This document shows positions 1 to 33,242 of a DNA stretch of 64,000 nt, piece after piece. The stretch lies in assembly GCA_934754495.1 (NCBI GenBank), contig CAKVHW010000002.1, positions 138,925 through 202,924 on the forward strand, in the 5' to 3' direction. Source of the DNA: an uncultured Clostridia bacterium (GTDB lineage Bacteria; Bacillota; Clostridia; Christensenellales; UBA1242). The notes beneath the pieces are model-generated. The model searched no databases, was not told where the DNA came from, and worked only from the letters and a program-made list of their open reading frames with translations. The position numbers were made by a program, and so were the translations under genes. Positions within the stretch are counted from its first letter, which is position 1, and each line of letters begins with the position of its first letter.

Positions 1-3000
1 TTTACTTTTATGGAGTTCCTATGAGAGCAACCACCAAACACACCTGATACATTTTCTGAACTAACCTGAGAAAAGTTCAACCCAGTAACACTTATATCTT
101 TTGTAATTGTAGTATTGTCAAACCCTGCCAAAACACCTGCGACCATACTAGAATAACTATAATAAGTTGTATCTTTACCATCTATATTTAGCCCATTAAC
201 CGTGATTTTAGAATCTAGTGTCTTGTTGTACAAATCACCAATAACACCCGAAATCATGTTTACATGGCCATACAAACTAATTGACAGATTTGTAATTTCT
301 ATATCGCCATTTATTGTGCCGGAGTTTTTATAAACAAGCCCACCACAATCTTGGGTTTTTAGGATTTTAGAGTTAGAAATTATAGTTGACACGCCATCAG
401 ATGTTGTTATTGTCCCTTCATTTTTATAAACACCAACAGAGTATGCATTTGTGTCTATTGAGCCATCAGAAATCTTAGAAGACACAGCCACACTAGATGC
501 ACTAAAGTCTTTAATTGTTCCTTTGTTTGTATCTATTGACGCTGTACCATTAATACTTATTTCCTTTAATGAAAATTGAGAAATTTCACCATTATTGGTT
601 GAAATAATTGAACTATTAAATGTTACACCTTGTATACTACCAGTAACTTTTCCATAATTACTCACATTCAAAGTAAATGGTTTATTAATAGTCTTTTTCT
701 CTTCAATATCAAAATTTACTGTTTGAATATTGCTTGCATTAAATTTAGTCCCTTCTCCAATTGGAGTAACAGCACCATACATATCATCGTATGCATTAAA
801 TGCATAAATCATATTTTTAAGTTCGGCAACAGTTTGAATATCAACTTCTTTTTGTCCAAATGGGTCTGTAGGAATTTGAATACCATTTCTAATATAAGGA
901 TAACCTTCATTAATATGGAAGTTGCCGTTTTTAACAACCCAAATAGATTTGTTTGTAGACTCTACAGTATCTGCATTAGTATAGTTGTAAGATGATTCTT
1001 TCATTACAAATTCTGAAATTTCACCATCACTACATGTTGCAATTTTACTACCACTGCTACCAGCAGATATGGCTTTTACACCGCCACCTACATATGTCTT
1101 GCCAAATCTGCCACCAGCAAGGCAGTTTCTAATAGTGCCTTGGTTTGAATAACACAATGCACCAAATTCAACATTAGAATTAATAGTTCCATTGAATTTA
1201 CTTGTTGTATAACTTTCGGCAATTGTACCATAGTTATAGAGTACAAAGTTTGAGAATTTATCATCCTTTAATACTGATGAAACCTCTTCTTTGCCATCTT
1301 GATTAACAGCTGCTGCTTTTACAAACACCATCATTGTACCAGATTTGTATATTTCACCATAGTTTGATGAAATTACAGAAATTTCCGACTGTCCAACATT
1401 TAATACATATTTATCATTATTTGTTAGACCAGATACAAATGCAATGTTATATAGCATACCATTGTTTTCATTCATAAAGAATGTATACGCACTTACTGCA
1501 CCTTCCACTTTCTCAAATTCAGTTTTGCGTAATACAAATAATATATTACTAATTATACCATCGTTTTTATTAAACAAATTCAATCCTGTTGTTACTTTTG
1601 TTCTTTTAATAACAACCTTAAAGTCACCATTTGTTTTATTTGATGTTAATATAGCACCACTGCCAACATTTAAACCTTCAGCAATTGTGGTAAAACTATC
1701 ACCAGTAAACACGTTGTAAGTATTTGCAGCAACATTAGCCACCAAAGTTGTAGGATTATTAGGATTATTTTTATTACCAGCATTATTGAAAGTTGTATAA
1801 GTGCTTATCATTTCATAGAACTTATCATATGATTCAAATGAACTAGTAAACATTGCCAAGTAATGTTTAGAACCTTTACTGTCAGCATTATTAAGTAAAC
1901 TTACTCCATTACTATCAGTTATATTAAAGTCTTGTAACAAACCATAACTAACATGATTATTTACAAGGTTTTTATTTTTCCCATCACTTGCAGTTGCTGG
2001 GTCAAACTCGCTAACAAAATAATAATTTTGAGAGCCTTCCACAACCTTTAAGCCTTTTGTAATTGCCGAATAAGATGCTTGATTTTTCTTGTTCTCAACA
2101 TTTGTTATTTTCGTTTCAACACCAGCTATATTTTTAACCACAAACTCCATTTTGTCACTATAAGCATAGAAACGTGTATAATCCATTACCCCATTAAGAC
2201 TAATACTAGCCGTTGTGTATCCAATTATACCACCAAGTTTAATTTTATTACTTTGAGCTTCTTTACCAGTACTATCTTTTGCTTGCTCATCGTACAAAAT
2301 ATCACCATAATTAGCCACGTTTTTAAATGCAACTGTTTTAGTCGCCTGTCCAATAATACCGCCAACATATGTATATGTTTTTAGTATCGCAAAGTTATTA
2401 GAAGCACCACCATTAAGGTTTACTAAATCAATATTTGCCATATTGTATGATTCTTCAATATTGATTGCATTCTTATTGTTGCTACCTACAATTCCACCAA
2501 TAGCAAGCGAATTAGCAGTTGCGGTGGTTTCATTTGCCTCAACAATAATATTAATTTTGGCAGTATTTCCTGTTTTTTGGATAGAACTATCGCATAATCC
2601 CGCAATTCCACCAATAGCAATTCCTTTTCTAGAATTAACCTCAGTTGCCGGAATGCCATTACCAGCATCAGCAACACCAATAAATGTGTAGTTAATTTCA
2701 CTATACACTTTTGTTCCATCATCGTAATAGCCAGTCTCAACACCATTAATTACATCGCCAGATGAATATCCTGCAATTAATCCAATGTATTCTTTGTCAG
2801 TATTAGAAATAGCTCTTATAGTTACATTACATCCTAGCGCATCTACATCTGAATATCCTACACCACTACTAGAACCAACTATTGCACCAATACCTACAAT
2901 TTTAGCATTTTTAGTTACTCCAGTTGCATTAATTATACTTACACCGCTAATTCTAATTTTATTAAACTTAGAATTAGCGAATGATGAACCATCAATAGCA

Positions 3001-6000
3001 ACCCTACCAAACACACCACCAATATAAATATTGGAACTTGAAGCACCTTTTGTCACTGTAGCAGTAATATTTTCGTCTGTTGCAGTAAGTGCTCCAATTA
3101 CACTTCCTTGTGAGGTTCCTGCAAATCCACCAAGGGAAATAGTGCCTTTATTAGATGTTATTTTATAATCAACACTGCCAATTTTATAAGTTATACCATC
3201 AATATTAGAATACAACAAATTACCAATGATACCACCCGCATTAGCAATTGTATCTTTATTGCTTACAATAGTACTTCCGCCATTAACTTGCAATTTGCAA
3301 TTTATAAACGAACTACGATATGCTCTACCAATAATATGACCATATGTAGATACATTTAATGTGTCAGTATCATAAGAAATAAGTTGTATTGTATCAGGAA
3401 TATTTATAATAATTTCACAATTTGTAAAGTTACAACCACTTGTGTTGTTGGCAAATAGTCCCAAATAACCTTCGCTATGCGATGTACCAATGCCACTTTT
3501 TCCACCTGCCAATCCAACACGTTTTGTAGCATTAATATTAAATTTAACATTTGTAAAGTTACAACCGCTTAGAATGTTGTACATGCCGTTGTAATTAGAA
3601 CTATCACTAGCTGCAAGAAGTGTAACATTAACCGAAACAACACTATTAGCAAAGAATACACAACTTGAAAGATTTATGTCTGTATTTTCAATTGTGACTT
3701 TATATGGAATTTCAGTAAATGAAATTTCCACACTCCTATCAAAAAATCTACCAGAATTGCCACCGCCATTTTTTGTCAATGTTATGTCTGCCAACTCTAC
3801 ATATAAAGGAGAAGAAGGAACCTCATTGCCTGTTGCAACATCAATAAATTTATAATTTTTGTTAATTTTATATATTTTATCTTTATAACCAAAAGTTAAA
3901 GCTGTTTTTAAATCATCATCATTGTTGATTTCAATAACATTTGATGTGGTGTTGTAGCCATATCTTGGTAAATACAATTTTGTATTTACGTACCAAATTG
4001 TAGAAGCCTTAGGATTACTTATTGTAAATACCTTATTTAGCATATCAGCCTCAGTATACTCACTAATGTCTACAATAAAGCCCCAGTTTGTCATAAACTC
4101 GTTTTTAAAGTTTCCAAGATCAGTACCACTTGGATTACTAATTAAATAATCGCCAGTAATATAAGAAATGTAATATTGTTTACCAATACGATATGGTGAA
4201 GTATATTCTTCTGTATATCTAGTAATTGTATCATTCGTAGTTTCAGAAATTGATCTACAATACAAAGACAATGCATTATTGCTAATTTTACTTGTATAGT
4301 TTTCATTATCTAGACTTCCAGTATGACTAACACCACCATAAGTAGAACTAATTACATTAAAGAAGTTGTTTGTATAGATTGTTGCATAACGTTCTTCTCT
4401 AGTTCCGGATATATTTTCTCTATAACCAGTTGTATAAGTGCTTACTAAATAATCAGATGCACCAATGTAAGAAGAACTTGGGTTTATATTATTTGCAGGA
4501 GTTTCTTCAACTGCCGAGCCGTCACTCAATGTGGCACAACTTACTCTACCAATTAAAGAACCTAAATATCTAAACCTAGCACTTTCGGTTGTTGGTGAAT
4601 AAGTATATGCTCCTGTTATGTTTCCAACCTCAAACATTGAGTTTTCACTACGTGTACTTCCAGCAAAATTTAAGAATTTGTTAATATCGTTTACATAGGT
4701 TACAACATTGTTGCTCCAAACATTCGAACTAACAACATTTATTAAATACAAATCTCTTTCTGCCCCACTCTTTCTGCCGTACATTTTATAACCAATTGCA
4801 CCACCAATCATTGTACTAGCATCAACATCACCAATTGTGTAGTCGTATGCCATATATAGCATGCCAACCGCTTGACCTACCAAGCCACCAGCGATGTATG
4901 AATAAGGATTAATAACATTAAGTTTTGAATAACTATCAACAATTGCAACCATGTTGCTGTAACCAATCAAACCACCAATTGCAATGTTTCTGCTTGAAAC
5001 ATCACCAAGATTATTAACAAAGAAGTTGTTTGCCGAAACGTTTCCAGCAGTTATTGTGTTGATTTGCGCATCAATTGTTTCTTGAATTGTTTCTGCGTGT
5101 TCAATTCGGCTTTCTATTAAGGCTGCCTTGTAAGAATAACCCACAATACCGCCCGCATAAGCCATACCAAACACACTTTGATTTAGATTATCAGAATTAA
5201 GTTCTACCTTAACATCTTTAACAATCAAAATGTCTGATTTCGATTCATTAACACCATTAAGTGAGTATTTTCCACCTAAATAGCCAAACACACCGCCCGA
5301 AACCATCGAATTAACAGCAAGGTTGTCTTTAACTGTTAGGTTTTGAATTGTTGTTCTGCCTGTTCTTAAATTTGCATATGTTGGGTCGTTTTCATCTTTT
5401 TTGTAAATTGATGGATTACTATAATCAAAGTCAACTCCAGATGTTCCAACAACCGCACCTGCAATTGCACCAGCATATGAAATATTTAAGTTTGACCAAT
5501 CAATATTATAATCGTGTTTTTTAAGAGTTACACCAATTTTATGAACACGTTGATTGCTATCAGTATAACTAAATTCATTATAATTAACATTATCAACTTT
5601 AAAGTTTTCAGTAAGGTTAAAGGCTTCGTTATCACCAGCACCAGAAGATGTGTCGGTTACATAATTTGCCATAACCCTAACATTAGATGTTGTAATTTCA
5701 GAGATTTTGGTGTTGTCACCAACAATCAAACCAGCAAGTCCACCAACCATATATTTACCACCAACAACATCACTTTCTTTGCTGTCTTGTGGTCCAACAA
5801 TATCTATTTTTGTAATTGTTGCATTATTGATTGTTCCAGCCAAAACACCTACTTTTCGGCTGTTTTCGCTACTAACTTCTCTGTAGTTTAGTTTTAGGTT
5901 GAATACAAACGCATTGGCAACATCATTCTTTTCCGACCCTAAACCAATTTGTGAGAAGATACCCCAGTTGTCACTCTCTGTTGCTTGTTGGTTAACAAGG

Positions 6001-9000
6001 TAAATATTAGAAAGTGTCATTGAATTTCCCATTAACACGCCATTAAATATAATGTCTGTAATAGAAATTTGGTCGCTAGCACCACTAATCTTGTACTTAT
6101 ATGTAATCTTATTGTCCGAGAAATCAAGATCTCTAACAACTTTTACATATCTAGCAGTAGATGAGTCACCATCATCGGTTGTTCCACCAAATACATACTT
6201 ACCATTACGTTTTTGAGTGTTTGTTACTATGTATTTAGCAAATTCCTCCGCTGTTGTGACAACAAGTGGGTTGTTTCTGCTACCAGGGTTGTTTTGAGTG
6301 TACGAATAATTAAATAATGTTTCTGTTCCGTTTTGAGTAGAAACGTTATCAGAATATCTATAATAAGTTTTTCCTTCTCTTTCAGTTGTTGTAAGAGTAA
6401 TTGTCTCACCGCTTAATGGTGATACATATACCCAATCACTAGAAACAGCGCTCAATTTTTTAATTTCAATTCCATAATACTTAAATGTATTATTTTTAAT
6501 TTGAAGAGTAGTATCAAGAGATGAGAATGTTAAATCATATACATCAGCAGTTCCAACACCGCTTGCATCTACTTCAATTACAAAGTACGAACTTGGAGCA
6601 GATATTAGTTCTCTGCAAGTATATATTTCAACATTTTCGCAGTTTGCAAGTGTAGGAAGTGCATTTTCGTTGTACAACCATACACCATCAACACTTGATT
6701 TATCACTAACAAAAGTAAATCCTGTAAAATATGATTGCGAAATAACCGAATCCGTAATAAGGTTTAAACCTACTGCTGGGTCAAGTCCTCTTAGTATTTC
6801 AAGATCAGCATTAGCACCAAGTCCCAATTCATTGTCAACAATTGCATAATAGCAATTTTTCAATGTTCCAAACATTGGCTTAACACTTACAAATAATGAA
6901 TGAGAAGATGAGTTTTTATCAATTTCTAGATTTCTAGATGTTGTATAAGCATTAACAATTTCACCTTTAGCACCATTTTCGTATACAAAACCAGCAGTTT
7001 GAGTACTAACATTCTTAATTTGAATATTAGTATAGCAGTCTTCAATTCTACCGGTATTTAGATATGTGAATCCACCAACCGATACAAGACTTTCAATAGT
7101 TGTAGATGTTGCACGGAAACTAGTAATACTATTACTTGTAACCGCACAAGAGTAAACTTTACCTGTGTTTTGACCAACAAAACCAGCCGTATGTGAATTT
7201 CTAGTGATTGTAGCATTATTTACAATGCTTATATCACTTGTAAAAGAGTTAGAGATTGTACCAGCATTAAATGATACAAAACCTGCCACCCTATTAGCAC
7301 CAGCTAATTTAAAGCCATTAACTCTTACTTGTTTTGACGATTCATTAGTTGAAACAGATGCTGTAATGCTTCCATTGTTTCTTACACCAACCATGCTATC
7401 GGCAATAACACCTGTATTTTGTCCAACAAGACCACCAATATAACCTGTTGATGTGGTTTGAGAACCACCAACCGAATAATAACCCGTGCTTAATGCAACA
7501 TACAAGTAGTTGTTGTTATCAAGCATGTTGTAATTTACAACTTTAACATTTATAACGGTGCCCTCGTTGTTGCCAGCCAATACGCCAAAGTAAACAAGTT
7601 CGGTTTCCCTTAAATCAATGTTAGGAGTAGTGTTTCCATTTTTCATTGAATTGTAAGTACTGCTACTTACAAGCAATTGAGCAATGTTAATGTTAAGGTT
7701 TTTAACAATACTATTTTCAGAAATTGTTTTAAACAAACCAACATATGCTTCAGTACTACCCTTTTCATTGGTTAGGTCAAGACTCTTAATATTTAATGTG
7801 TACCCATTACCATCTAGGTAATTTGCATTAAAATCAATAGGTTTCCAAGAAATCAAATCAATATCGCATTGAAGAATATAACTTGCACCTTCTTGCATCT
7901 TTTCCAAATCCTCTTGAGTGTTAATAGGATTTGGGTGATCTTCAGAACTATTATCTTCAATAACAAGTGTAAAGTAATAGTCAAACATGAACACTGTATA
8001 ACCTTCAATATTGTATTGATCTGTAATTACAATGTCACCATTAATATCATAATAATAATGGAATGTTAGTCTTAATGTATTAGTCGAAATCGACAATGCT
8101 TTTATCTTACAAAGACCATCTTCGGTTAAAAATTTAAATCCGCTATATATCTTATTAGCCAATAGTTTTTCATAACCATTAGATGTTGCAACATACCAGT
8201 TTACCCCATCATCAGAACCTGATATTGCAGAAACAAGTGCATTATATTTTTCAAGTTCTTTTGGTTTTAATACACCATAGTTATAATCATATGCTTTTTC
8301 ATTAAGTGTCGCAACAGCCTTTAATGTTTTTGTTGTTGCATTTTTAATTGTAACTACTCCATCAACAGCATCAAGTTCGTTTATATCTTCTAGAGTAAAC
8401 GACACAATCTGCAACTCAACTGTTTTATCTGCACTAAATGTCGTTTTGTTAATCTCTCGCTTACCGCTAAAGTTTAAGGTATATTTACCATATGTAAGCG
8501 CACCCGTATCAAGATAGTACTTTTTAGATAGATCAATTTCACTATCCATTAAAACAGGTTGAAGTACACCCTTATTGTCCATGTAGTACATAATGTTTTT
8601 TGCAACAATACTACCATCAGCTGCTCTTAAATTCCAATTAATTTCAGTATCTACATTTTTTGCTGTAATTGTAAGAGGTACAATTTCTCCCTTACCAATA
8701 ATACCATCAGAATATTTATCAAGGGTTGCAGTAATTTTAGGGAAACTTTCAACATGTAGTTGTTTTGTTTCACTTACAATAACATTTCTATCTTTATCAT
8801 ACAAATTAACTGTAATTGGGAAGTACACATCTTGTGGCATTGTTGTTCTAAAGTTAAATAGCAAGTAGTATTCGCCTTGTGCCATATCCAATACAGAACT
8901 GGAACCACCATATTGTGAAGGAAGTAACGAAGGATAATCCACTATTGTGTTCCATAGAATTATCTTATTGCCTACAAGAGTATTAGTTGTAGGAAGTTTT

Positions 9001-12000
9001 GAATAAGTAACACTATTATTGTCCAAATCCATTGACGAGATATATTGTTGACTAATATCAACATAATTTAAGTATTGAGAGTCAAGTTGTACTTCAACCA
9101 ACAATACATTGTTGTAATCTGGAGTAATTTCAACTTTTAAAATGCCTTGTTTGCCAGGAGCAATCGCCCAAATATCCGATTGATCAAATGCACTTCCGTT
9201 TTCTTCCTTAACAGGATAGAAATATGCATCAAGTGTAGAAACAGGATTTGGAGCAATTGTAAAGTTAAAGGTACTTTCTTTGCTACCACTAGTAGCCTTA
9301 ATTACAAATTCTTTATCATAATATAATGGGTTGTTGCCTTTAGCATAGATATTTACATAATCTTCCAAATTCATAGACAACACAAATGTAAATATGTGTC
9401 TGTGAATAGCAACTTCACCCACAGCATTATTGTCTTTAACGAATTCGTATTTTCTAAGTCTAATTTTTAATAGACTTGCTTCGCTTGTAGAATCAACAAC
9501 TAAGTTTGTTGATGAATTAAAGCCCTTGCTTACATCTACTAGAATATCATTAATTCCATTAGCAGAAAGTGTAACTGTTTGAAGTCCATCACCATTATTG
9601 GAGTAAACAATAACAGAAATTTCTTTTTCGTTTTGAGCTGAAATTCTAGCCTCGTCTTCACTAAACATAACGTTTAGGGCTTCAACAACAACATTAATTG
9701 TAATTTCTTTAGCAAGTGAACTTACAAACACTTTTTCGTTGTTGAAAATTACAAAAGGCGTAATACTTAATTTAATTTCACCAGTTCCAACTTTGTCTAG
9801 TGCCAACAAACTAAGTGTTGTTGTGTAATTAAAGTCAAGAGTTTTTCCAACCATTTTGCCGTCAATAATATCTGTACCAAACTTAACACTACTTGTAGCC
9901 TCTGTTGAGATATTTGTATTTCCGTCAACCGATTTCACAACAACTTGGAAACCGCTTGTGTTGGCTGGATAATCAATACCGTTAAGAATGTTTTCAAAAC
10001 CAAAACTATAGTCTTCGGCAACACCAACTGTAAGATTAAAACTTTCAACCATTTCATCGGTTTTGTCGTGTTTTACAACAAAATCTGTAAAGCCCTTAAC
10101 AACAACAATATTAAACTTAACATTAATTCCGTCATCTTTAAGGTTGTAGAAAGTCAATGTTGCTTGTCCTACATTTCTAACTTTAATTGTAATATAACTG
10201 TCATTAGAAGTATCAACATACACAACATCTTGGTTGCTACTAGCAACAATCATTTGCGATGCTGTGTCTTTATTAATTTTTAACGCACTAATTTCAAGAA
10301 TCTTGCCATTAATGCTAGCTACATAATATCCATCGCTTGTTATGCCATAAGACATTTTGTAACTATTAAGATTTTTAGAATCTCCGCTAGTTGTTGGGGT
10401 ATTGTACATTAAAATTACTGTGTCAGAATCATATAGCACATGACCTTGTAATTCTTCATCACCATCAACAACATAATATTTTCGACTGGTTTCGTCTACA
10501 TTGAAATCATTAACAATCAAGTTAAGAGTTGCTAGAGTGTCAAACCACAATTCATACTTACTTTCAGAAATTTTATCAGTGATAGTCAAGTATGGTTTAA
10601 TCATAACTGGCAAACCACCATTAATCTTGTTGGTAATAACCCATTTATGAGCATTAGGACCACTTGATATTGTAGCAGTACGTATCTCACCTGTATTATT
10701 ATCTTTAAATGTTAATATGTTGTTTTCACAACTTACTTCTTTGTTGTGTGGGAAAACACCACTACCATCTTCATTTTCAATTGCAAAAAATCCATCTACA
10801 ATTGTGATATAATAGGTATGTCCATCAACAAATACGCTAAAGTCTTGTTGCAAGTTGGTGGTTGTTACACCTTGTTTTATTATAAATTTATCTTTAACAT
10901 TGTTGTAATAGTCGTCACCGCCAACATAATTTTCATCATAGCTCCAATTGTCGCCATTCTTATATAGTTTAACGGTTGCCGAACCAACAGTTGTGGCATT
11001 TCCACTATTCAATTTTGTCATCAATGTTTCAATTAAAGTTGCATTAGTACTTTTGTCTAAAATATTTCCTTTGCTATCAGTCCAATATGTATGGTAGTAA
11101 TATGTTTTTTCATATTCAACATATTTCCTGCCATCTTCAGCAGTTTTAATTGCAAGTCCACCAATAATTTCTAGTGTTGCACTATCATTAATAGCATTAC
11201 CATTCTCATCAACCCAGCCATCGCCATTTTGATAGTATCTTGTTACCAACACATAACTTTCACCGCTTACTACTGTCACCAAACCAAGTTTTGCAAGCAC
11301 CTTAGAATCGACAACTGCAGTAGCATGGCTGGCATCATTGTACCAGTGTGCACTGTAATAATATTTGTTTCCGCCGTTTTCAACTTCTTGTAACTTACGT
11401 GCATTAAGCATATCTATTACAAATTGGTCAGAAATGTCATTGTTCACATACTGCCATACATTAAACGAAACATATTTAATAGCAGTGCTACCTTCTACAA
11501 TATTTGAAGTAGAAGAATTAAGTCTTGCAAGTGTATTGGCATCAGTAACTTCTTCAGAAAGCGTTTCCACGCCTTCACTCTTATCATACTTTTTATACCA
11601 TTTTTGATAGTATTCACTTGTAGGGTCATCTGTTGAGTAATAAGTGCTAATTCCAAATGTTGCATTTATTTCAAGTTCGGTAACTTCTACATAACTTATG
11701 TTTCCTTTAATGACAATCTTAGGAAGTGTATCCAATTTATCGCTTGTTTCTTTATCATCAACAAGGTTTTCTAAGCCACCTTCTTCGGTGTAATTACCAT
11801 ACCAATGTGCACCATCGTAATAATAACGTTTAAATACAAGATATATTTCACCGTCAAAGTTTTTAAAGCCATTAGCGGTAAACAATTCTTGAATTGTCTT
11901 ATACTCTGTTTTGTTAATAATGTTGTAGATATTTAAAATTTTGTTGTTTGTTAGCACTTTGTTTTCAATATTGATGTTAAGTTTTTCATTAACATAATAT

Positions 12001-15000
12001 CTATTTCCACCAGACAAATTAAACTCTTGTCCGGATGCATCAACAAGCACACCATTTTCTAGTGTATAATCAACACCACCAATTGTAATTGTAACTGTGC
12101 CATTAGGATTAATAGTACTATTTACTGATTTTACAATAATTGTAGGATTGCCTTCATAATAATGAATAATCTTTTTAGAAGAATCCTTATCATCTTCAAG
12201 TGGAATTGTAGCATAATAGCCACTTTCATATCCACCATATTGATACAAGTTGCCAACTAGCATTCCTGTACCTGCAATAAGTTTGGTATATATTTTACCG
12301 CCAAACTCACATGTATCGCTTGTGTTTGATGACAAGATTACGTCACCGTAAACATACATCTTAACACCGCTATAATAATACAACTTACCTTCATATGGAT
12401 TGCTTTTGCTATTTGAAATAAAGAAAATTCTTGTTACTTTGTTTCCGTCAATAACTATGTCACCGTCTTCTTCACTAAGTGTAATTTCTTTTAGCAAATC
12501 TTCAGTTGTTTCTATCGTTTTTTGTTCTGGAACATTAGCAAGCCAATATTCATTAAAGTCTCTAACAATTGTCAAACATTCTTTATCGCTATACACATTA
12601 GACCAGTTGTTGGTGTTAATGTAATATGTATTATCCTCATAAGTGAATTTGATAATAGGTTTAAATTCGGCAGCCTTTTCACCTATTGCTACAATATCAC
12701 CAGTAATTGATTCGTTGTAAACAACATTTGATTTGTTTTGTGTTTGGTCGTAAGCATATTTCCCGCTTTCAACCTTTTTCATTTCGCTTCTGGTATTGAT
12801 ACTAGCAACTTGTTCTGCTAATGAACTACCAGTTCCGCCAAACCTAGCCAAAACACCAATTATATCATTTTGTGTTTCGCTTGCAACAGTGTCGTTTACA
12901 CCAACTCTTAATGTTTTTAGTTTTAATAATGACTTTGTATCTGCTTTTCCATTAATAAAGTTATAACCAATTAAACTTTGTAACAAATCAACTTTATATG
13001 AATCAAAGCTTGAAATTTCACTAGAGCCTTCAAGTCTATAATATTCATAAGAATCTGCAAGTGGCGAACTTGCTAAATCACGCCTGTATGCCGAAAGCCT
13101 TAATTGATCATTGTTTCTAAATACAATGATTGTGCTTTCACTTACTTTTGTAGTCAAACCAAAATATGAAATTTTGTCATTAAAGATGTTTTTATCTTGT
13201 TCTATTGTAAACAACGAACCATTAAGTTTTGCATAAACTTTGCTAATTGTTGTGCTATCAAGAGTTTCGTTAATCTTAAATGTTGTTTTGCTTACTGCTG
13301 TTTCTTGCACAACAACATAGTTGCTATGTTTATCTAGGTTTTTATCACCTAAAATATTGTATGTGTATGTTGTAGGTTCGCTTGTATATTCTTTGTTGTT
13401 TGTGTCCGCAACCGCTATTGCATCGGCAAACACAAGTTTTAGCATATTATTTACATTTGCTTTTCCATCAAAATAAGAATTTTCAATTTTAATGCTTGCA
13501 TCTTCTCCGCCATTATCAAGAGTAGATTTAAAACCTACAAAAGCACCTGCTCTTTCTTGACTTGCATAAGCATTAGAAGCAATGTGTGAATTAAAATAAC
13601 TATTGTTGATTGTAAGGCTGTTATCAAGTTTTAAGTCTTCACTTTTTACCTTAGTAACTGCACCTACAAGACCACCAATATATTGACCAGTAGCAAATTC
13701 AGGCGAGTTGTTTTGAAGCACCACAACCGCACCTAAGTACTTAGATGCCATCGCTTCCATAACCTTAACATTGCCGTCATATGTATTAATGTCTTGCGAA
13801 GTATAAGATCTTACATAAGTGTATTCAAGTCTTGCATTTTCAGCAGTTCCTACCACACCACCAACATTATTATAACCAGCAATAATGTTTTTCATATTGA
13901 TGTTGTAAAGCATTTGAACTTGTGAATCATTAATTTCGGCATATTGCACATAACCTGCAATACCACCAACATTGCTATGACCAGCAATTACAGGATATAC
14001 AATGGCTTTGTTGATAGTAATATTTTGAGCATAACCCACTACACCACCAATATTTGCCTTAGCAAAATCCATTGCCACTGTGCTATTTGCTTTTTCATAT
14101 TTTAATGCCGTTAATCTTGCCAAAACATTAACTTCGCTAATATTTGCAAAATTACCCTCGCTAACACCAACAAACCCAACAATACCACCAACATTAATGT
14201 CGTTGTTGTTTCCTTGAAGTGTGCTTACACTAATTGCAATATTTGCATTAATGTTGCTATTGTTGATAGTGCTTTCACTTGGAGCACCCGTAACTTCTAC
14301 TTTGCCGTTTGTTTTACCAAACATACCCCCCACATTAACAGCACCACTGCCGTTTTGAACAACAGTGATTGTACCATTAACACGTGAGTTTTTAACAACA
14401 AGACTACTATTTACATTTCCTGCAATTACACCAATATTAATCTCTCTGTTAAATTCACCTCTTACGGTAACATTAACATTTTCAAAATTAACATGGTCAA
14501 GTGTAATTCCTGCCCTTACACTTGCAAACAAGCCAAAACTTGTATTTACAGAATCACTAGTAAATAGCATATTTAATCCATAAATTTTGTATTTGTAAGT
14601 TAAGGTTTCTGTTTTGGAAATGTATTTTGTAAATATTCCCGAAAGATTGTTTTTCAAAACATAATTAGGATTTGTAATTACATTGTTTAAAATTATCTCA
14701 TTTGCAAGCACATAATATTTGTCTGCAATTTCGGTTGTTTCACCATTAATAACTTTTGTGCCTTGCAAATATTTTTCAAAGTCGCTTCTGCTTCTTATTT
14801 GATATGGGTTTTCTTGTGTTCCGTCTGCAACATTAATGTTGAATTCGGTCTTTAGGTTAAATTGTCCGTCAGAGATTTGGTCAACAGCACCAACTGTGCA
14901 AATATACTTTCCAGCGGTTGTGCCCAAATACTCAATTACAACTTGGTTGTTTTTAAGTGTAACTTTAAATAAAGGTGCATCATTATTATATGTTCCGTTA

Positions 15001-18000
15001 ATGAATTCACCACATGTTTTGTAGTTTCTGTAGTTTAAAATTCCATTTCTATAAATTGCAAATGCAACATTAACTTTTTCTCCAGTTTTCACATCGGCAA
15101 TTTCAACAAACACGTCTTTATTAAATGTGTTTGTTGGCAAAACCTCATATGTAAATGATGTTGTTTTTTCGCCGTCTAGTTCAAGGTACAAACCGTTTTC
15201 TTTGTTGACTGTTGTTTTGATACTAGTAGATTTTGTAGGGTTATAAATTCTAAGAACAAAGTTGTTTCCTTCAAACACGTTATTAAATTGTTTTACAGTG
15301 CCCCTAAATACAACTTCAACAAAACCTTCTTTAAAGATTGCATTAATTAATGCTTCTCTATTTTCTGTACTAACAGCACCACTAAGTTTTGCTTCATAAG
15401 TATAAACAGTATTTAGTCTAAATGTTTCTTTTTTTGCATCGTTAAGATTGTTAATTAATGCTATGTCTTCAATACGTCTAGAATCTTCTACTGTTTCGTA
15501 AATGATGTCGTCAATACTTTCATACCAGTTTTCAGCCCACAAATAATATGTTTTACTTACTTCATTTGCGGTAATTGTAGCATATTTTAAACCATCTAAA
15601 TTAGGAATTGTTTTTGTATTGGCTTCAGATGCATCAAATATTGTCTTATACCAATTAATATTTTCTGCAACATTCACTCTATAATATCTTGTACCACCCA
15701 CTTCAATGAAAGACATTACATGTTGGTCGCCCACAAGGTCGCCATAACTAACAGTTGTTGCACCAAGTTTTGTAACAGTATCAGTAGCATTATTCATTGT
15801 GTAATTTTGATACAAATTACCATAGTTTTCCATGTCAAACATGTCATCGCCAGAAGCGGTTGTTATTTTTAATTGAATTTCTGCAAATGCCTTAGCAATA
15901 TCGGCATCTTTTAAGTTTGTAGCATCATACACCGTGAATGTGTTTTTGTTAAGTTTAGCATTCGATATTTTTTCAAACACATAAGTATTAATAATAATTG
16001 AATTTGCAATACCATTAACATGAATTACAAGTGGCGTACTTACAAATTTACCATCTTTAACACTTGTTGTTGAAGTGGCAGTTGTTATAAGTTTACCGCC
16101 TTCATTCTTAACCCAGCGAACATAACTTGTATTTGTGTCGATTTCCACACCTTCATTAACCGCAACTTTTTCAATGTTTCCGTTATACAAGAATAATCTG
16201 TACACGTCAAAGTTGATTGTTGTGTTAGTAGCCAAAACTAAGTAGTCAAAGAATGTGTATGTATGTTCCATTCCATTAAGGTCCATGTACTTAACAGAAT
16301 CTCTGCTTAGTGTAAATGCATCGCTAACACTACTTGTTAGTTCGCCAGCACCTTCACTATCGCTGTTCCAACTAGCAAAGAAGCCAGTATTGTTTTTATC
16401 AACATCTAAAAGTAAAAGTTCATCAACATATTTTAGCCCAACATTAATTCTACAACTAGAAGAAATACCAGTAATCATTCTAAGTGTTAATTGTGTTCCA
16501 CTTGGAGTAAAGTATTTGTCTAGTTTGAAATTAGGAGTAAAGAAAACCTTATTGCCTTCAAATGTAACTCTACCAGAACCACCATTTGTAAGGCTCACAT
16601 CACTAATAACATCACGAGCAGTGATATTAGTGTCGGTAAATTCATATATCAAAGTAGGTTGTAAGTCAGCCGACTTTTCAATAATGATTGTTTTATCGGT
16701 TAAATTAAAATCACTAATACTTGCCGAAACGTGAACCTTAATATTTACATCTTTTGTGTAAATTTGTGCTTCTTTTCCTTGACCATAGTTGTCGGTATAA
16801 AACTTAGACGTCATGGTAAGCACAATTGAAATCGTAAATGTGTCGTTGCTACTGCTCTTTAGGTAAAGAGTTGTGCCATTTGCAAATTCTGTTGCGCTAC
16901 CTGCACTTGTATCAACAACTGTGCCGTTTTCGTTCATAACAACAATGGTAGATTCCATTGTATTAATTTTAAATGTCATGTCGGTGGCAGAACTATCGTA
17001 CACTTTTAGTTTTGTTCCAAAGGTACTGCTGTAATCCTTAAACACCATCAACATTTTTTCTGAATTATAAGATTCATCGTTAATTTTTAAATTTGTTGCA
17101 GTAGGAACATTTATTACTTTAAAGTTTACAACAATCTTTTTAGTAAATTGCCCATCGTACTCGCCAGTGCTTTTTCCACCTGTATAATCAACCTTAAACA
17201 CTAAAGTTTGATTACCAGCTTCTCGTGGTTCAACATCAAACACGAATGTTGTACTGCCACCACTAATTGATGTGCTTACTTTTGTTACACCAATTATTTC
17301 GTTTCCAAGGTCATCAACTGTAACTTTGTAATCGGTGTAATTTAGTACCATTCTAATTTGTCCACCAAAGAAATACTTATCACCTATTGTTTCTGCCCCA
17401 CTCTTCTCACCTTCTGGAAGATTAGGATTAGCAAACAACAAATCATATTCAACTTGGTCTTCTTTCTTTTCGTTTGGTTCTACACTATTAAATGTGTTTT
17501 GAGCACCCACACTAAACACAATGTGTGCTGTAGGAGTGCTGGTGTTTGTATTGCTATAAAATTTAAATGGTTTTATTACTTTAACTCTTAGATAAGTATC
17601 TTTAGTTGTTATATCTTCTTTGCCCTCAATTGCTGACCTTGCACCAAGTTTAATATAACAATTTCCTTCACCATCTACCAATTCTGAGTTTTCAGAAATT
17701 CTGAAATCTTTTAAGTCAAGCACATTGTCTTTAATAAGTTTATCGGCACTTCCTTGACCTTGATACAATCTTCTTGTTTCTTCAGAAATATAGTACTTAA
17801 CCTCGGTTTGGCTTGTTGCTGATGGTGTAAAGTTTATATATCTTCTTGAGTTTCCGTTAAGGTCTAGTTTTCCACCTTCTTCACACACAAGTTCCACATC
17901 GTTTTTAAATGCCATTTCTTTCACTTCAACATCAATGCGAATTTTAATTATTTCCGTGCGGTTGCCTTCTGCCGTTTTTATAGGTATTTCTGTATAACCT

Positions 18001-18320
18001 GTCTTAACACCCTTAAATTCTAACACATAATGGCCGGCTTCGTTGTTTTCTTTTACTTCAACCGAAACAAACTCATCGCCCAGCCTACCGCCGTACTTAG
18101 GAAGTTCTATGTCTTTGCTTATAGATTTTGGTGCATCAACATCAACTATTAGTCGCTGTGGCTCGCTCACAAGTTCGTTGTTTTCGCCCTCAACCATTGT
18201 AATGTTAAGTTCGTTGCTACTAACTGTAAGTTTTACTTTTTCGTATGGGTCACCACCACAAGCAGCCACTCCAAACAATGTAAATATAGCCAAAAGTAAT
18301 ACACAAAATCTTTTTTTCAT
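1..18320 (-). CDS. Giant cell-surface lipoprotein, N-terminal 6,106 codons; the C-terminus and stop codon lie beyond the left window edge
   Basis: ATG at 18320 has a GAGGA about 10 nt upstream and an in-frame TGA at 18324-18326. The N-terminus MKKRFCVLLLAIFTLFGVAAC/GGDP is a signal peptide plus lipobox. My hand translation of this minus frame found no stop from 18320 to 1. The ORF track lists no ORF in this frame, which fits a frame with no in-window stop. The body contains many [IV]GG[ILV][IV]G GLUG-type turns. Confidence 0.85.
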   Translation of the reverse strand, partial: MKKRFCVLLLAIFTLFGVAACGGDPYEKVKLTVSSNELNITMVEGENNELVSEPQRLIVDVDAPKSISKDIELPKYGGRLGDEFVSVEVKENNEAGHYVLEFKGVKTGYTEIPIKTAEGNRTEIIKIRIDVEVKEMAFKNDVELVCEEGGKLDLNGNSRRYINFTPSATSQTEVKYYISEETRRLYQGQGSADKLIKDNVLDLKDFRISENSELVDGEGNCYIKLGARSAIEGKEDITTKDTYLRVKVIKPFKFYSNTNTSTPTAHIVFSVGAQNTFNSVEPNEKKEDQVEYDLLFANPNLPEGEKSGAETIGDKYFFGGQIRMVLNYTDYKVTVDDLGNEIIGVTKVSTSISGGSTTFVFDVEPREAGNQTLVFKVDYTGGKSTGEYDGQFTKKIVVNFKVINVPTATNLKINDESYNSEKMLMVFKDYSSTFGTKLKVYDSSATDMTFKINTMESTIVVMNENGTVVDTSAGSATEFANGTTLYLKSSSNDTFTISIVLTMTSKFYTDNYGQGKEAQIYTKDVNIKVHVSASISDFNLTDKTIIIEKSADLQPTLIYEFTDTNITARDVISDVSLTNGGSGRVTFEGNKVFFTPNFKLDKYFTPSGTQLTLRMITGISSSCRINVGLKYVDELLLLDVDKNNTGFFASWNSDSEGAGELTSSVSDAFTLSRDSVKYMDLNGMEHTYTFFDYLVLATNTTINFDVYRLFLYNGNIEKVAVNEGVEIDTNTSYVRWVKNEGGKLITTATSTTSVKDGKFVSTPLVIHVNGIANSIIINTYVFEKISNAKLNKNTFTVYDATNLKDADIAKAFAEIQLKITTASGDDMFDMENYGNLYQNYTMNNATDTVTKLGATTVSYGDLVGDQHVMSFIEVGGTRYYRVNVAENINWYKTIFDASEANTKTIPNLDGLKYATITANEVSKTYYLWAENWYESIDDIIYETVEDSRRIEDIALINNLNDAKKETFRLNTVYTYEAKLSGAVSTENREALINAIFKEGFVEVVFRGTVKQFNNVFEGNNFVLRIYNPTKSTSIKTTVNKENGLYLELDGEKTTSFTYEVLPTNTFNKDVFVEIADVKTGEKVNVAFAIYRNGILNYRNYKTCGEFINGTYNNDAPLFKVTLKNNQVVIEYLGTTAGKYICTVGAVDQISDGQFNLKTEFNINVADGTQENPYQIRSRSDFEKYLQGTKVINGETTEIADKYYVLANEIILNNVITNPNYVLKNNLSGIFTKYISKTETLTYKYKIYGLNMLFTSDSVNTSFGLFASVRAGITLDHVNFENVNVTVRGEFNREINIGVIAGNVNSSLVVKNSRVNGTITVVQNGSGAVNVGGMFGKTNGKVEVTGAPSESTINNSNINANIAISVSTLQGNNNDINVGGIVGFVGVSEGNFANISEVNVLARLTALKYEKANSTVAMDFAKANIGGVVGYAQNITINKAIVYPVIAGHSNVGGIAGYVQYAEINDSQVQMLYNINMKNIIAGYNNVGGVVGTAENARLEYTYVRSYTSQDINTYDGNVKVMEAMASKYLGAVVVLQNNSPEFATGQYIGGLVGAVTKVKSEDLKLDNSLTINNSYFNSHIASNAYASQERAGAFVGFKSTLDNGGEDASIKIENSYFDGKANVNNMLKLVFADAIAVADTNNKEYTSEPTTYTYNILGDKNLDKHSNYVVVQETAVSKTTFKINETLDSTTISKVYAKLNGSLFTIEQDKNIFNDKISYFGLTTKVSESTIIVFRNNDQLRLSAYRRDLASSPLADSYEYYRLEGSSEISSFDSYKVDLLQSLIGYNFINGKADTKSLLKLKTLRVGVNDTVASETQNDIIGVLARFGGTGSSLAEQVASINTRSEMKKVESGKYAYDQTQNKSNVVYNESITGDIVAIGEKAAEFKPIIKFTYEDNTYYINTNNWSNVYSDKECLTIVRDFNEYWLANVPEQKTIETTEDLLKEITLSEEDGDIVIDGNKVTRIFFISNSKSNPYEGKLYYYSGVKMYVYGDVILSSNTSDTCEFGGKIYTKLIAGTGMLVGNLYQYGGYESGYYATIPLEDDKDSSKKIIHYYEGNPTIIVKSVNSTINPNGTVTITIGGVDYTLENGVLVDASGQEFNLSGGNRYYVNEKLNINIENKVLTNNKILNIYNIINKTEYKTIQELFTANGFKNFDGEIYLVFKRYYYDGAHWYGNYTEEGGLENLVDDKETSDKLDTLPKIVIKGNISYVEVTELEINATFGISTYYSTDDPTSEYYQKWYKKYDKSEGVETLSEEVTDANTLARLNSSTSNIVEGSTAIKYVSFNVWQYVNNDISDQFVIDMLNARKLQEVENGGNKYYYSAHWYNDASHATAVVDSKVLAKLGLVTVVSGESYVLVTRYYQNGDGWVDENGNAINDSATLEIIGGLAIKTAEDGRKYVEYEKTYYYHTYWTDSKGNILDKSTNATLIETLMTKLNSGNATTVGSATVKLYKNGDNWSYDENYVGGDDYYNNVKDKFIIKQGVTTTNLQQDFSVFVDGHTYYITIVDGFFAIENEDGSGVFPHNKEVSCENNILTFKDNNTGEIRTATISSGPNAHKWVITNKINGGLPVMIKPYLTITDKISESKYELWFDTLATLNLIVNDFNVDETSRKYYVVDGDEELQGHVLYDSDTVILMYNTPTTSGDSKNLNSYKMSYGITSDGYYVASINGKILEISALKINKDTASQMIVASSNQDVVYVDTSNDSYITIKVRNVGQATLTFYNLKDDGINVKFNIVVVKGFTDFVVKHDKTDEMVESFNLTVGVAEDYSFGFENILNGIDYPANTSGFQVVVKSVDGNTNISTEATSSVKFGTDIIDGKMVGKTLDFNYTTTLSLLALDKVGTGEIKLSITPFVIFNNEKVFVSSLAKEITINVVVEALNVMFSEDEARISAQNEKEISVIVYSNNGDGLQTVTLSANGINDILVDVSKGFNSSTNLVVDSTSEASLLKIRLRKYEFVKDNNAVGEVAIHRHIFTFVLSMNLEDYVNIYAKGNNPLYYDKEFVIKATSGSKESTFNFTIAPNPVSTLDAYFYPVKEENGSAFDQSDIWAIAPGKQGILKVEITPDYNNVLLVEVQLDSQYLNYVDISQQYISSMDLDNNSVTYSKLPTTNTLVGNKIILWNTIVDYPSLLPSQYGGSSSVLDMAQGEYYLLFNFRTTMPQDVYFPITVNLYDKDRNVIVSETKQLHVESFPKITATLDKYSDGIIGKGEIVPLTITAKNVDTEINWNLRAADGSIVAKNIMYYMDNKGVLQPVLMDSEIDLSKKYYLDTGALTYGKYTLNFSGKREINKTTFSADKTVELQIVSFTLEDINELDAVDGVVTIKNATTKTLKAVATLNEKAYDYNYGVLKPKELEKYNALVSAISGSDDGVNWYVATSNGYEKLLANKIYSGFKFLTEDGLCKIKALSISTNTLRLTFHYYYDINGDIVITDQYNIEGYTVFMFDYYFTLVIEDNSSEDHPNPINTQEDLEKMQEGASYILQCDIDLISWKPIDFNANYLDGNGYTLNIKSLDLTNEKGSTEAYVGLFKTISENSIVKNLNINIAQLLVSSSTYNSMKNGNTTPNIDLRETELVYFGVLAGNNEGTVINVKVVNYNMLDNNNYLYVALSTGYYSVGGSQTTSTGYIGGLVGQNTGVIADSMVGVRNNGSITASVSTNESSKQVRVNGFKLAGANRVAGFVSFNAGTISNSFTSDISIVNNATITRNSHTAGFVGQNTGKVYSCAVTSNSITSFRATSTTIESLVSVGGFTYLNTGRIEDCYTNIQIKNVSTQTAGFVYENGAKGEIVNAYTTSRNLEIDKNSSSHSLFVSVKPMFGTLKNCYYAIVDNELGLGANADLEILRGLDPAVGLNLITDSVISQSYFTGFTFVSDKSSVDGVWLYNENALPTLANCENVEIYTCRELISAPSSYFVIEVDASGVGTADVYDLTFSSLDTTLQIKNNTFKYYGIEIKKLSAVSSDWVYVSPLSGETITLTTTEREGKTYYRYSDNVSTQNGTETLFNYSYTQNNPGSRNNPLVVTTAEEFAKYIVTNTQKRNGKYVFGGTTDDGDSSTARYVKVVRDLDFSDNKITYKYKISGASDQISITDIIFNGVLMGNSMTLSNIYLVNQQATESDNWGIFSQIGLGSEKNDVANAFVFNLKLNYREVSSENSRKVGVLAGTINNATITKIDIVGPQDSKESDVVGGKYMVGGLAGLIVGDNTKISEITTSNVRVMANYVTDTSSGAGDNEAFNLTENFKVDNVNYNEFSYTDSNQRVHKIGVTLKKHDYNIDWSNLNISYAGAIAGAVVGTSGVDFDYSNPSIYKKDENDPTYANLRTGRTTIQNLTVKDNLAVNSMVSGGVFGYLGGKYSLNGVNESKSDILIVKDVKVELNSDNLNQSVFGMAYAGGIVGYSYKAALIESRIEHAETIQETIDAQINTITAGNVSANNFFVNNLGDVSSRNIAIGGLIGYSNMVAIVDSYSKLNVINPYSYIAGGLVGQAVGMLYMAYDYTIGDVDASTMIGGAIGYKMYGRKSGAERDLYLINVVSSNVWSNNVVTYVNDINKFLNFAGSTRSENSMFEVGNITGAYTYSPTTESARFRYLGSLIGRVSCATLSDGSAVEETPANNINPSSSYIGASDYLVSTYTTGYRENISGTREERYATIYTNNFFNVISSTYGGVSHTGSLDNENYTSKISNNALSLYCRSISETTNDTITRYTEEYTSPYRIGKQYYISYITGDYLISNPSGTDLGNFKNEFMTNWGFIVDISEYTEADMLNKVFTISNPKASTIWYVNTKLYLPRYGYNTTSNVIEINNDDDLKTALTFGYKDKIYKINKNYKFIDVATGNEVPSSPLYVELADITLTKNGGGNSGRFFDRSVEISFTEIPYKVTIENTDINLSSCVFFANSVVSVNVTLLAASDSSNYNGMYNILSGCNFTNVKFNINATKRVGLAGGKSGIGTSHSEGYLGLFANNTSGCNFTNCEIIINIPDTIQLISYDTDTLNVSTYGHIIGRAYRSSFINCKLQVNGGSTIVSNKDTIANAGGIIGNLLYSNIDGITYKIGSVDYKITSNKGTISLGGFAGTSQGSVIGALTATDENITATVTKGASSSNIYIGGVFGRVAIDGSSFANSKFNKIRISGVSIINATGVTKNAKIVGIGAIVGSSSGVGYSDVDALGCNVTIRAISNTDKEYIGLIAGYSSGDVINGVETGYYDDGTKVYSEINYTFIGVADAGNGIPATEVNSRKGIAIGGIAGLCDSSIQKTGNTAKINIIVEANETTATANSLAIGGIVGSNNKNAINIEESYNMANIDLVNLNGGASNNFAILKTYTYVGGIIGQATKTVAFKNVANYGDILYDEQAKDSTGKEAQSNKIKLGGIIGYTTASISLNGVMDYTRFYAYSDKMEFVVKNIAGVETKITNVENKKNQASYSAITKGLKVVEGSQNYYFVSEFDPATASDGKNKNLVNNHVSYGLLQDFNITDSNGVSLLNNADSKGSKHYLAMFTSSFESYDKFYEMISTYTTFNNAGNKNNPNNPTTLVANVAANTYNVFTGDSFTTIAEGLNVGSGAILTSNKTNGDFKVVIKRTKVTTGLNLFNKNDGIISNILFVLRKTEFEKVEGAVSAYTFFMNENNGMLYNIAFVSGLTNNDKYVLNVGQSEISVISSNYGEIYKSGTMMVFVKAAAVNQDGKEEVSSVLKDDKFSNFVLYNYGTIAESYTTSKFNGTINSNVEFGALCYSNQGTIRNCLAGGRFGKTYVGGGVKAISAGSSGSKIATCSDGEISEFVMKESSYNYTNADTVESTNKSIWVVKNGNFHINEGYPYIRNGIQIPTDPFGQKEVDIQTVAELKNMIYAFNAYDDMYGAVTPIGEGTKFNASNIQTVNFDIEEKKTINKPFTLNVSNYGKVTGSIQGVTFNSSIISTNNGEISQFSLKEISINGTASIDTNKGTIKDFSASSVAVSSKISDGSIDTNAYSVGVYKNEGTITTSDGVSTIISNSKILKTQDCGGLVYKNSGTINGDIEITNLSISLYGHVNMISGVIGDLYNKTLDSKITVNGLNIDGKDTTYYSYSSMVAGVLAGFDNTTITKDISVTGLNFSQVSSENVSGVFGGCSHRNSIKV

Positions 18321-18370
18321 TTTTCATTTCCTCATAAGTTTATTTAATTTACTTACAAAATTATATATAT

Positions 18371-18399
18371 ATTATATATATACCCCTTTTTTAAGTCAA
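18371..18399 (-). promoter_or_regulatory. Sigma-A-type promoter of the giant lipoprotein gene
   Basis: The minus strand reads TTGACT (18399-18394), a 17-nt spacer (taaaaaaggggtatata), then TATAAT (18376-18371). This leaves a leader of roughly 45 nt before ATG 18320. The -10 element sits inside an alternating TA tract. Confidence 0.45.
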
Positions 18400-20625: not shown

Positions 20626-21042
20626 TTAAAAACCTTCAAAAATTGTTGGAATGCCAACTTTTACATCTTTTCCCACCGCAATTTGTAATGTTAATATATC
20701 ACCAGTGTATATATTATCAAATTTACAATCATACACAATATTGTCAAAAACATAATACTTTTTGACAATATGTATTTGCAATAAGTCAATAAATAATTTA
20801 AAATCTTTTTTAGAAATTTTAAAAGATATATATTTATACCCATTAAATTTAAGGTTTAAATTATCAATATCTTTAATTATGTAGTCCCCCACCATCTGCC
20901 CATTACTAACGTTTTCACATGCAATTTCAACTTGCATTATATCATATACAATGCTATTTAGAACCTGCAGCTTTATGTTATTTACACAAAGCATAAAGGC
21001 AAGCATTAAGCATATAAATACTAAAACATATAATCTTTTCAT
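20626..21042 (-). CDS. Hypothetical secreted or membrane protein
   Basis: 138-aa ORF with a hydrophobic N-terminus (LYVLVFICLMLAFMLCV), on the same strand immediately upstream of the M23 gene. No motif recognised. Confidence 0.55.
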   Translation of the reverse strand: MKRLYVLVFICLMLAFMLCVNNIKLQVLNSIVYDIMQVEIACENVSNGQMVGDYIIKDIDNLNLKFNGYKYISFKISKKDFKLFIDLLQIHIVKKYYVFDNIVYDCKFDNIYTGDILTLQIAVGKDVKVGIPTIFEGF

Positions 21043-33206: not shown

Positions 33207-33242
33207 AAATAAAAATAAGCAACTTTTAATTGCTTATTTTTT
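33207..33242 (-). terminator. Rho-independent terminator downstream of the HtrA-like gene
   Basis: AATAAGCAA (33214-33222) pairs with TTGCTTATT (33230-33238), overlapping the stop codon. A T-run follows on the minus strand. Confidence 0.6.

Follow-up and report, generated by a model that had tools for sequence, protein, structure and literature searches.

The window analysed here, a stretch of 64,000 nucleotides (nt) from an uncultured Clostridia bacterium (assembly GCA_934754495.1, contig CAKVHW010000002.1), carries at its left edge the first 95% of a single gene (positions 1-18320, minus strand), the product of which is a protein of ~6,400-6,500 amino acids (aa) and ~700 kDa. On balance this protein is probably a lipid-anchored, non-repetitive, fast-evolving giant adhesin-like surface fibre. 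It also seems rather likely that it forms, with its orthologue from a sister species, the founding pair of an undescribed Gram-positive family of N-terminally lipid-anchored, ~700 kDa proteins that combine non-repeated 'dark' domains, a W-repeat region and four to six GLUG solenoid modules that have diverged from one another, belong to one small clade of uncultured gut Firmicutes and diverge at several times the rate of the core genome.

The reverse complement of 3..18320, translated by machine (table 11), gave 6,106 codons from the ATG at 18320 to position 3 with 0 stops, which confirms the stop-free minus frame claimed in the original prediction; an in-frame stop or frameshift was looked for in this translation and none is present. 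The five remaining frames over the same interval contain 249-920 stops each and stay open for at most 162 codons, while the chance of 6,106 stop-free codons, calculated from the base composition of that strand, is ~1e-229. There is no N in 1..18320. The start had been placed on the evidence of an in-frame TGA and an upstream GAGGA, and both were found, with a spacing of 8 nt between GAGGA and the ATG. The standard bacterial code is favoured because no in-frame TGA occurs over 6,106 codons; a Mycoplasma-type code (code 4) was rejected on the same ground and because the Shine-Dalgarno spacing fits ATG 18320. The gene and the elements at its 5' end are as follows.

1..18320, minus strand: coding sequence of the giant lipoprotein, residues 1-6106, ~670 kDa; 3' end cut by the window edge
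18324-18326, minus strand: in-frame TGA, which rules out a longer N-terminus
18329..18333, minus strand: Shine-Dalgarno-like GAGGA, 8 nt before the ATG
18371..18399, minus strand: sigma-70-type promoter-like site, TTGACT-17 nt-TATAAT, 11/12 matches; a consensus match only

The gene is missing from the list of open reading frames (ORFs) because it has no stop within the window and the program omits ORFs that run off the ends, as had been supposed. The short plus-strand ORFs that are listed inside it (e.g. 16255..16734) are its shadows. It is, as claimed, the largest gene in the window, the second being an ORF of 4,152 aa at 50644..63102. The description of the gene as still incomplete is true, but the missing part amounts to only ~5% of it, full-length versions elsewhere being 6,421-6,477 aa.

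These full-length versions came from a survey of other assemblies in which the locus was traced with the adjacent PP-loop (tilS-like) protein as anchor. The survey located it on at least 21 contigs, which represent different samples and assemblers and include one from a Hadza gut assembly and others from several assemblies of Logan and ENA. Complete gene calls of 6,429, 6,421 and 6,477 aa were obtained, with two more calls cut by contig ends, and the window therefore lacks only ~320-370 C-terminal residues. Five distinct strains (L001-L005) keep the frame intact over 3,271 comparable codons, with protein identities of 97.7-98.5% and in-frame indels only, and over the 1,169 codons of a sixth contig (L006) there is no difference from the window. 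The ratio of non-synonymous to synonymous divergence (dN/dS, Nei-Gojobori) relative to the window is 0.13-0.18. Positive selection within the species was rejected, the corresponding ratio of proportions (pN/pS) exceeding 1 in no 100-codon segment (maxima 0.66, 0.60 and 0.47, the last at residues 2501-2600). The open frame is a single functional gene and is kept by selection. Two local differences between the window and the other five strains were also seen. All five carry a 7-aa insertion at residue 2293, and at residues 2501-2600 both synonymous (0.108) and non-synonymous (0.05) divergence are raised and 1-aa indels occur, a patch that suggests a recombination import.

The contiguity of so long a frame was borne out by its intact recovery in independent assemblies from other samples. 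No tandem repeats were found in the DNA of 1..18320, the only direct repeats being short, imperfect ones that encode GLUG motifs, and no internal blastp pair was found within the protein at E <1e-4. Collapse of repeats was rejected, as there are neither tandem nor long repeats to collapse, and with the frame kept across strains as well, collapse or chimerism is very unlikely. At the protein level hhalign of 200-aa segments gave only one pair at or above 80% probability (83%, segments starting at 4401 and 5201). The giant is not a tandem-repeat protein.

A sister-species orthologue came to light when 1.84 billion cluster representatives were searched exhaustively by phmmer with residues 4907-6106. 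At E <=0.001 this retrieved two proteins only, one of 6,403 aa (P0001), which is 42% identical over the searched part, and a 58-aa fragment. Over its whole length P0001 is collinear with the window protein, with an overall identity of 57-59%, and its gene is syntenic on a contig from another sample (L007), where it lies next to genes for the tilS-like protein, SpoIIID, acyl carrier protein (ACP), an M23 peptidase, an MprF-like protein and Mfd. The flanking proteins of the two sister species are 83-97% identical (tilS-like 96.7, ACP 93.4, Mfd 88.4 and MprF-like 85.5%). At an identity of only 57-59%, the giant protein thus diverges several times faster than the neighbouring core genes, with its length and order kept. 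Identity to the orthologue is 60-80% over the first two thirds and declines gradually to 31-55% past residue 4500, and residues 2601-3200 are among the best conserved between both species (67-77%). A protein exposed at the surface would be expected to show such divergence between species alongside the purifying selection seen within one. The orthologue's C-terminus, which stands in for that of the window strain, contains seven GLUG motifs (residues 5924-6222) followed by a W-rich, C-containing domain of ~180 aa that has no GLUG motifs. No further copies were found in GTDB species-representative genomes or JGI metagenome contigs, a weak negative because the scans used few peptide patterns.

The N-terminus of the window protein is MKKRFCVLLLAIFTLFGVAAC followed by GG, in which MKKR, the hydrophobic stretch FCVLLLAIFTLFG and the lipobox VAAC can be distinguished, with a mean Kyte-Doolittle value of 2.37. 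A pattern check showed that VAAC fits the consensus [LVI][ASTVI][GAS]C, and the orthologue, which begins with MRKRLCVLLLALFTVLGFTAC followed by GG, has the same layout. The signal peptide and lipobox that had been read at the N-terminus are thus supported both by the consensus pattern and by conservation in a 57%-identical orthologue, and by its pattern the protein is a predicted member of the broad bacterial lipoprotein class. The signal peptide is the sole hydrophobic segment conserved in both proteins; a borderline stretch at residues 4884-4905 of the window protein (score 1.68) has no counterpart in the orthologue. Neither an LPXTG-like sorting signal nor a C-terminal membrane segment occurs in the full-length orthologue. 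The window encodes a second lipobox protein, an HtrA-like protease with FLIMGC followed by SS, and its presence suggests that a lipoprotein pathway may be in use in this organism. The giant protein is acidic and rich in N (9.8%), T (8.9%) and S (8.8%), as well as in V and G, with 0.5% Cys; an N/T/S-rich, low-Cys bias is that reported for extracellular proteins (PMC12863079).

The original prediction described an alternation of GLUG-type modules with two Ig-like-looking, beta-rich stretches. The GLUG-type modules were borne out. The Pfam GLUG family (PF07581) scores 26.9 bits against a cut-off of 20.5 at residues 1447-1469, within module 1, and 27.6 bits in the C-terminus of the orthologue, and a motif scan combined with a home-made profile located clusters of GLUG-like coils at residues 1325-1590, 3620-3720, 4188-4480 and 4996-5360, with a fifth cluster (5924-6222 in the orthologue) beginning just before the window edge. 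The chain is thus read as containing four to six divergent GLUG-type modules, predicted from these motifs and separated by long stretches that have no known relatives. Several of the modules appear, from the sequence, to open with a cap-like 'NP.x[IV]' motif and to close with a 'W...LP.L'-like tail. No Pfam Ig-like family was matched at E <=0.1 anywhere in the protein, residues 24-1163 and 1627-3457 (the two supposed Ig-like stretches) included, and part of the second stretch proved to consist of W-centred repeats instead. The parts of the protein, from the N-terminus onwards, are as follows.

18258..18320, minus strand: signal peptide and lipobox, residues 1-21; MKKR, hydrophobic core, VAAC, with Cys21 the predicted lipidated first mature residue
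14829..18257, minus strand: N-terminal region, residues 22-1164; rich in N, T, S and V, with no match in Pfam, NCBIfam, PDB or plasmids
13371..14828, minus strand: GLUG module 1, residues ~1165-1650; cap-like ENPYQIRS and seven GG[LIV][IV]G coil motifs at 1325-1590
7959..13370, minus strand: central region of unknown fold, residues ~1651-3454; no family matches
10821..11843, minus strand: six W-centred repeats of 45-65 aa, residues ~2160-2500; [YF]Y...W[YV]...[VI]xD..L..L, from an alignment of the units
6606..7958, minus strand: GLUG module 2, residues 3455-3905; cap HPNPINTQEDL, tail VDGVWLYNENALPTL
3951..6293, minus strand: GLUG module 3, residues ~4010-4790; cap NNPLVVTTAEEF, five coil motifs at 4188-4480, tail STIWYVNTKLYLPRYG; support at motif level only
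2121..3938, minus strand: GLUG module 4, residues ~4795-5400; ten coil motifs at 4996-5360; support at motif level only
885..1778, minus strand: possible solenoid-like module, residues ~5515-5812; cap NNPNNPTTL, tail KSIWVVKNGNFHINEGYPYIRNG, no GLUG motif; a weak assignment
3..848, minus strand: beginning of the final GLUG module, residues ~5825-6106; runs off the window edge and is continued in the orthologue

The N-terminal region (residues 22-1164) may be made up of beta-sandwich domains. In module 1 the coils are also visible as DNA repeats (family D1) spaced 81-186 nt. Module 2 is the most conserved stretch of the protein, at 78% identity to the orthologue (73-80% along it), and has sub-threshold GLUG matches near residues 3625 and 3708 (E 0.046 and 0.095). 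The W-centred repeats are kept in both species, with conserved Trp positions, and match no Pfam family; they loosely recall cell-wall- or glycan-binding repeats.

Similarity to anything beyond the orthologue is scarce. The GLUG motif alone was recognised by Pfam, and for ~90% of the protein there is no match at all in these databases or in Pfam; no NCBIfam match and no PDB match, by sequence or by profile, was obtained for any part. A tblastn search of plasmids with the N-terminal, central and C-terminal regions and module 1 gave no match, and a motif scan of the giant protein detected neither HExxH nor a Walker A/P-loop. A word-indexed protein search with residues 1-1150, 5500-6106 and 1160-1660 was also negative, a result that carries little weight because the known orthologue was not retrieved either. 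The sole outside similarity found was that of module 2 to the passenger of a 'filamentous hemagglutinin' protein from Caballeronia that has a two-partner secretion (TPS) domain (29% identity over 255 aa, database E 2e-4).

From the gene and the selection upon it, the signal and lipobox pattern, the GLUG motifs, the want of any further anchor and the contrast in rates, a chain of steps covering lipidation, localisation, fold and adhesion can be inferred. The giant gene would be transcribed from its own promoter, and the pre-protein would pass through Sec, be lipidated by Lgt at Cys21 and then be processed by signal peptidase II. The N-terminus would then tether the protein to the outer face of the cytoplasmic membrane, with the long fibre reaching through and beyond the wall. 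The GLUG modules would fold as beta-solenoids, as in haemagglutinin-like adhesins, and could offer surfaces to which host mucus or glycans, food particles or other cells bind, with the beta-rich regions between them acting as spacers or extra binding domains. The fast divergence at a maintained length may come from pressures of phage, immune or ligand-driven origin to which the protein is exposed at the surface.

Several points weigh against this picture of an anchored adhesin. Expression, lipidation and localisation are predicted from sequence, and the genes for Lgt and LspA are not in the 64-kb window. AlphaFold2 models, built from a two-sequence alignment, gave a mean predicted local distance difference test (pLDDT) of 33 for residues 1150-2349 and 27.8 for residues 3455-3905. 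Strands do appear at the expected periodicity in the GLUG regions, but the models are unreliable, pLDDT reaching only 50-70 where strands are present in the model of module 1. Because these models are unusable, the beta-solenoid and beta-sandwich folds are drawn from motifs and one weak alignment. With ~90% of the chain having no detectable relative, a catalytic or toxic domain could be hidden there. The role in adhesion is suggested by likeness to other giant surface proteins, and a protective coat or an enzyme scaffold fits the same data.

Two other functions for a giant surface protein deserve consideration. One is delivery of a toxin, in the manner of polymorphic toxins or contact-dependent inhibition, with a beta-helical stalk presenting a variable C-terminal effector to neighbouring cells. 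The fall in identity to the orthologue after residue 4500, from 60-80% to 31-55%, speaks for such a system, as do the different lengths of the gene among strains (6,421, 6,429 and 6,477 aa) and the W- and C-containing domain of ~180 aa, free of GLUG, at the orthologue's end; moreover, the sole outside similarity is to a TpsA/haemagglutinin-like passenger, a scaffold that CdiA toxins also use. However, identity falls off gradually, with nothing like an abrupt drop ahead of a swapped tip, a Pfam search of the window protein and of the orthologue's C-terminus found no toxin, pre-toxin or LXG/RHS/PT-type domain, and known delivery systems of that kind have no N-terminal lipid anchor, so that this explanation is improbable. 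The other is a surface-anchored multi-enzyme, in which beta-helix modules or dark regions would degrade glycans as lyases or hydrolases and the giant size would serve to capture substrate. The parallel beta-helix is a common fold of polysaccharide lyases and hydrolases. Residues 2601-3200 and 3401-3900, at 67-80% identity, are constrained beyond the need of a mere spacer, and GLUG motifs have been found in IgA1-protease-type proteins (PMC4021314). Yet no enzyme family was matched in Pfam, NCBIfam or PDB sequences, even at E 0.1 to 10, nor is there an HExxH motif or any carbohydrate-active gene near the giant gene, and a multi-enzyme is accordingly quite unlikely.

That the open frame is an assembly artefact, chimeric in origin, or a decaying pseudogene that is no longer expressed is scarcely credible. 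Grounds for raising the question are that the organism is known from metagenome assemblies only, that mis-assembly is frequent for giant genes and that the htrA-like gene in the same window has an in-frame stop. Against these stand the independent assembly of the same 18-19 kb frame from different samples and pipelines, the want of tandem or long repeats that could collapse, a dN/dS of 0.13-0.18 and a collinear sister-species orthologue of nearly equal length; an open frame so long cannot persist without selection.

A practical consequence is that start-to-stop ORF finders silently omit a gene of this kind at an edge, even when it is the largest in the window, and in this case 29% of the window was missed. 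Together the giant gene and the 4,152-aa ORF take up 48% of the 64 kb. This uncultured gut bacterium thus invests heavily in surface proteins, and such proteins usually govern cell attachment and recognition (host mucus, phages, antibodies). The finding of one orthologue among 1.84 billion representatives, and of no solved relative, illustrates how much of the surface-protein space of gut Firmicutes has yet to be mapped. If the reading given here is true, the dark regions, for which Pfam, PDB and AlphaFold give no signal over >5,000 aa, could be a source of new folds or of activities, binding or enzymatic, not yet described. The result is useful as a repair of annotation, and while the size and kind of the protein would not surprise a specialist, there is still scope for novelty in a chain that has almost no homologues and almost no predictable structure over >5,000 residues.

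The remainder of the window gives some indication of the host, which SpoIIID, GerAC, Amidase_3 and Mfd-Pth, as identified from sequence, point to as a low-GC (32%), spore-forming Firmicute from gut metagenomes. The second giant ORF (50644-63102, minus strand) is complete, with an N-terminal membrane anchor (containing LLLNILLVSIAVVFCLIGILVYL) and scattered matches to the Listeria-Bacteroides repeat (Flg_new, PF09479), and has no blastp similarity to the first. A single in-frame TAA at 33747-33749 divides an HtrA/DegP-like serine protease (33234-34241, minus strand), which has a PDZ domain and a lipobox of its own (MRKFVLFFICAFLIMGC followed by SS), between two ORFs; the halves of the protease (Trypsin_2 in the N-terminal one, trypsin and PDZ in the C-terminal one) share one frame, and the TAA could be a nonsense mutation, the mark of a pseudogene or a sequencing error. 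Two ORFs that match no Pfam family, one of 138 aa (20629-21042, minus strand) and one of 412 aa (21254-22492, plus strand), lie a little past the neighbours of the giant gene and have counterparts on L007 at 12115-12531 and 12718-13944. These are fast-evolving, at 45% and 68% identity between the sister species, whereas the surrounding genes are 83-97% identical. No tRNA gene and no Rfam family at the gathering threshold was found in the 64 kb. The GC skew stays negative across the whole stretch and almost every long gene is on the minus strand, from which the window appears to fall within one replichore with its genes co-oriented.

Comparison with described systems places the protein near several groups. 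With the GLUG-motif proteins (PF07581) it shares clustered GG[LIV][IV]G coil motifs, but its several modules are so divergent that they barely detect each other, and no GLUG protein besides the orthologue was retrieved at E 0.001 in the exhaustive search with the last 1,200 aa. The Caballeronia protein (Caballeronia zhejiangensis WP_244808324.1) resembles it in a cap-like motif, 'DIDL...W.PI...F.G.LDGNG.T...L' and then 'YVGLF'. Unlike that protein and other TPS exoproteins (TpsA/filamentous haemagglutinin), no piece of the giant contains a TPS domain (PF05860); the giant also has no outer-membrane partner, and its host is Gram-positive in type.

The giant adhesins of other bacteria, among them Ebh of Staphylococcus, the serine-rich repeat proteins and the RTX adhesins of the LapA/SiiE/BapA type, are likewise long, secreted, acidic and low in Cys and are presumed to form adhesive fibres. 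They consist, however, of tens of near-identical tandem domains, of which the giant described here has none, and they carry LPXTG/sortase signals, a C-terminal membrane segment or a type I secretion system (T1SS) retention module, all of which are absent from it. Tandem Ig-like, cadherin or RTX arrays of the RTX/Bap type were not detected by blastp, hhalign, DNA repeat analysis or Pfam. Membership of the TPS, LPXTG and RTX/Bap families was rejected after a check of their defining features, LPXTG by way of the orthologue's C-terminus.

The original prediction had also called the protein extremely large for a bacterium. The very long ORF is real, but the phrase is overstated, as predicted bacterial proteins of >30,000 aa have been described. 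A survey of giant genes reported proteins of >30,000 aa, including some from Firmicutes, and up to 85,804 aa, with 'large' defined as >10,000 aa (West-Roberts et al., bioRxiv 10.1101/2023.11.21.568195), and at 6,400-6,500 aa the giant protein is below that threshold. The very large genes of Omnitrophota and other phyla are similar in being metagenome-derived and mostly 'dark' very long ORFs, which have to be studied through structure prediction of sub-regions. Their products, at 10,000-85,804 aa, contain numerous transmembrane regions as well as SecA-like DEAD helicase domains, in contrast to the single N-terminal lipid anchor predicted here. Giant adhesin-like proteins that are secreted and have beta-solenoid modules are already a well-known kind, and this one is no size record.

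By analogy, the nearest described counterparts are Giant1-5 of Apilactobacillus kunkeei (PMC12863079). These measure 3,000-8,000 aa, carry a signal peptide and beta-solenoid heads but no transmembrane domain, and have few homologues. They differ in having long internal repeat regions (alpha-helical or beta-sheet arrays), whereas the giant described here has no detectable tandem repeats, and in a C-terminal SH3b-like domain proposed for wall attachment, in place of which an N-terminal lipobox is found here. Several predicted solenoid modules are spread along the chain in the window protein, and no sequence similarity between the two was found. What they share is a Firmicute host, a size class, an N-terminal signal peptide, the want of a transmembrane domain, few homologues and rapid divergence, with beta-solenoid binding heads proposed for Giant1-5, as well as the presence of more than one giant gene in a small region, which is seen here in the form of the 4,152-aa ORF.

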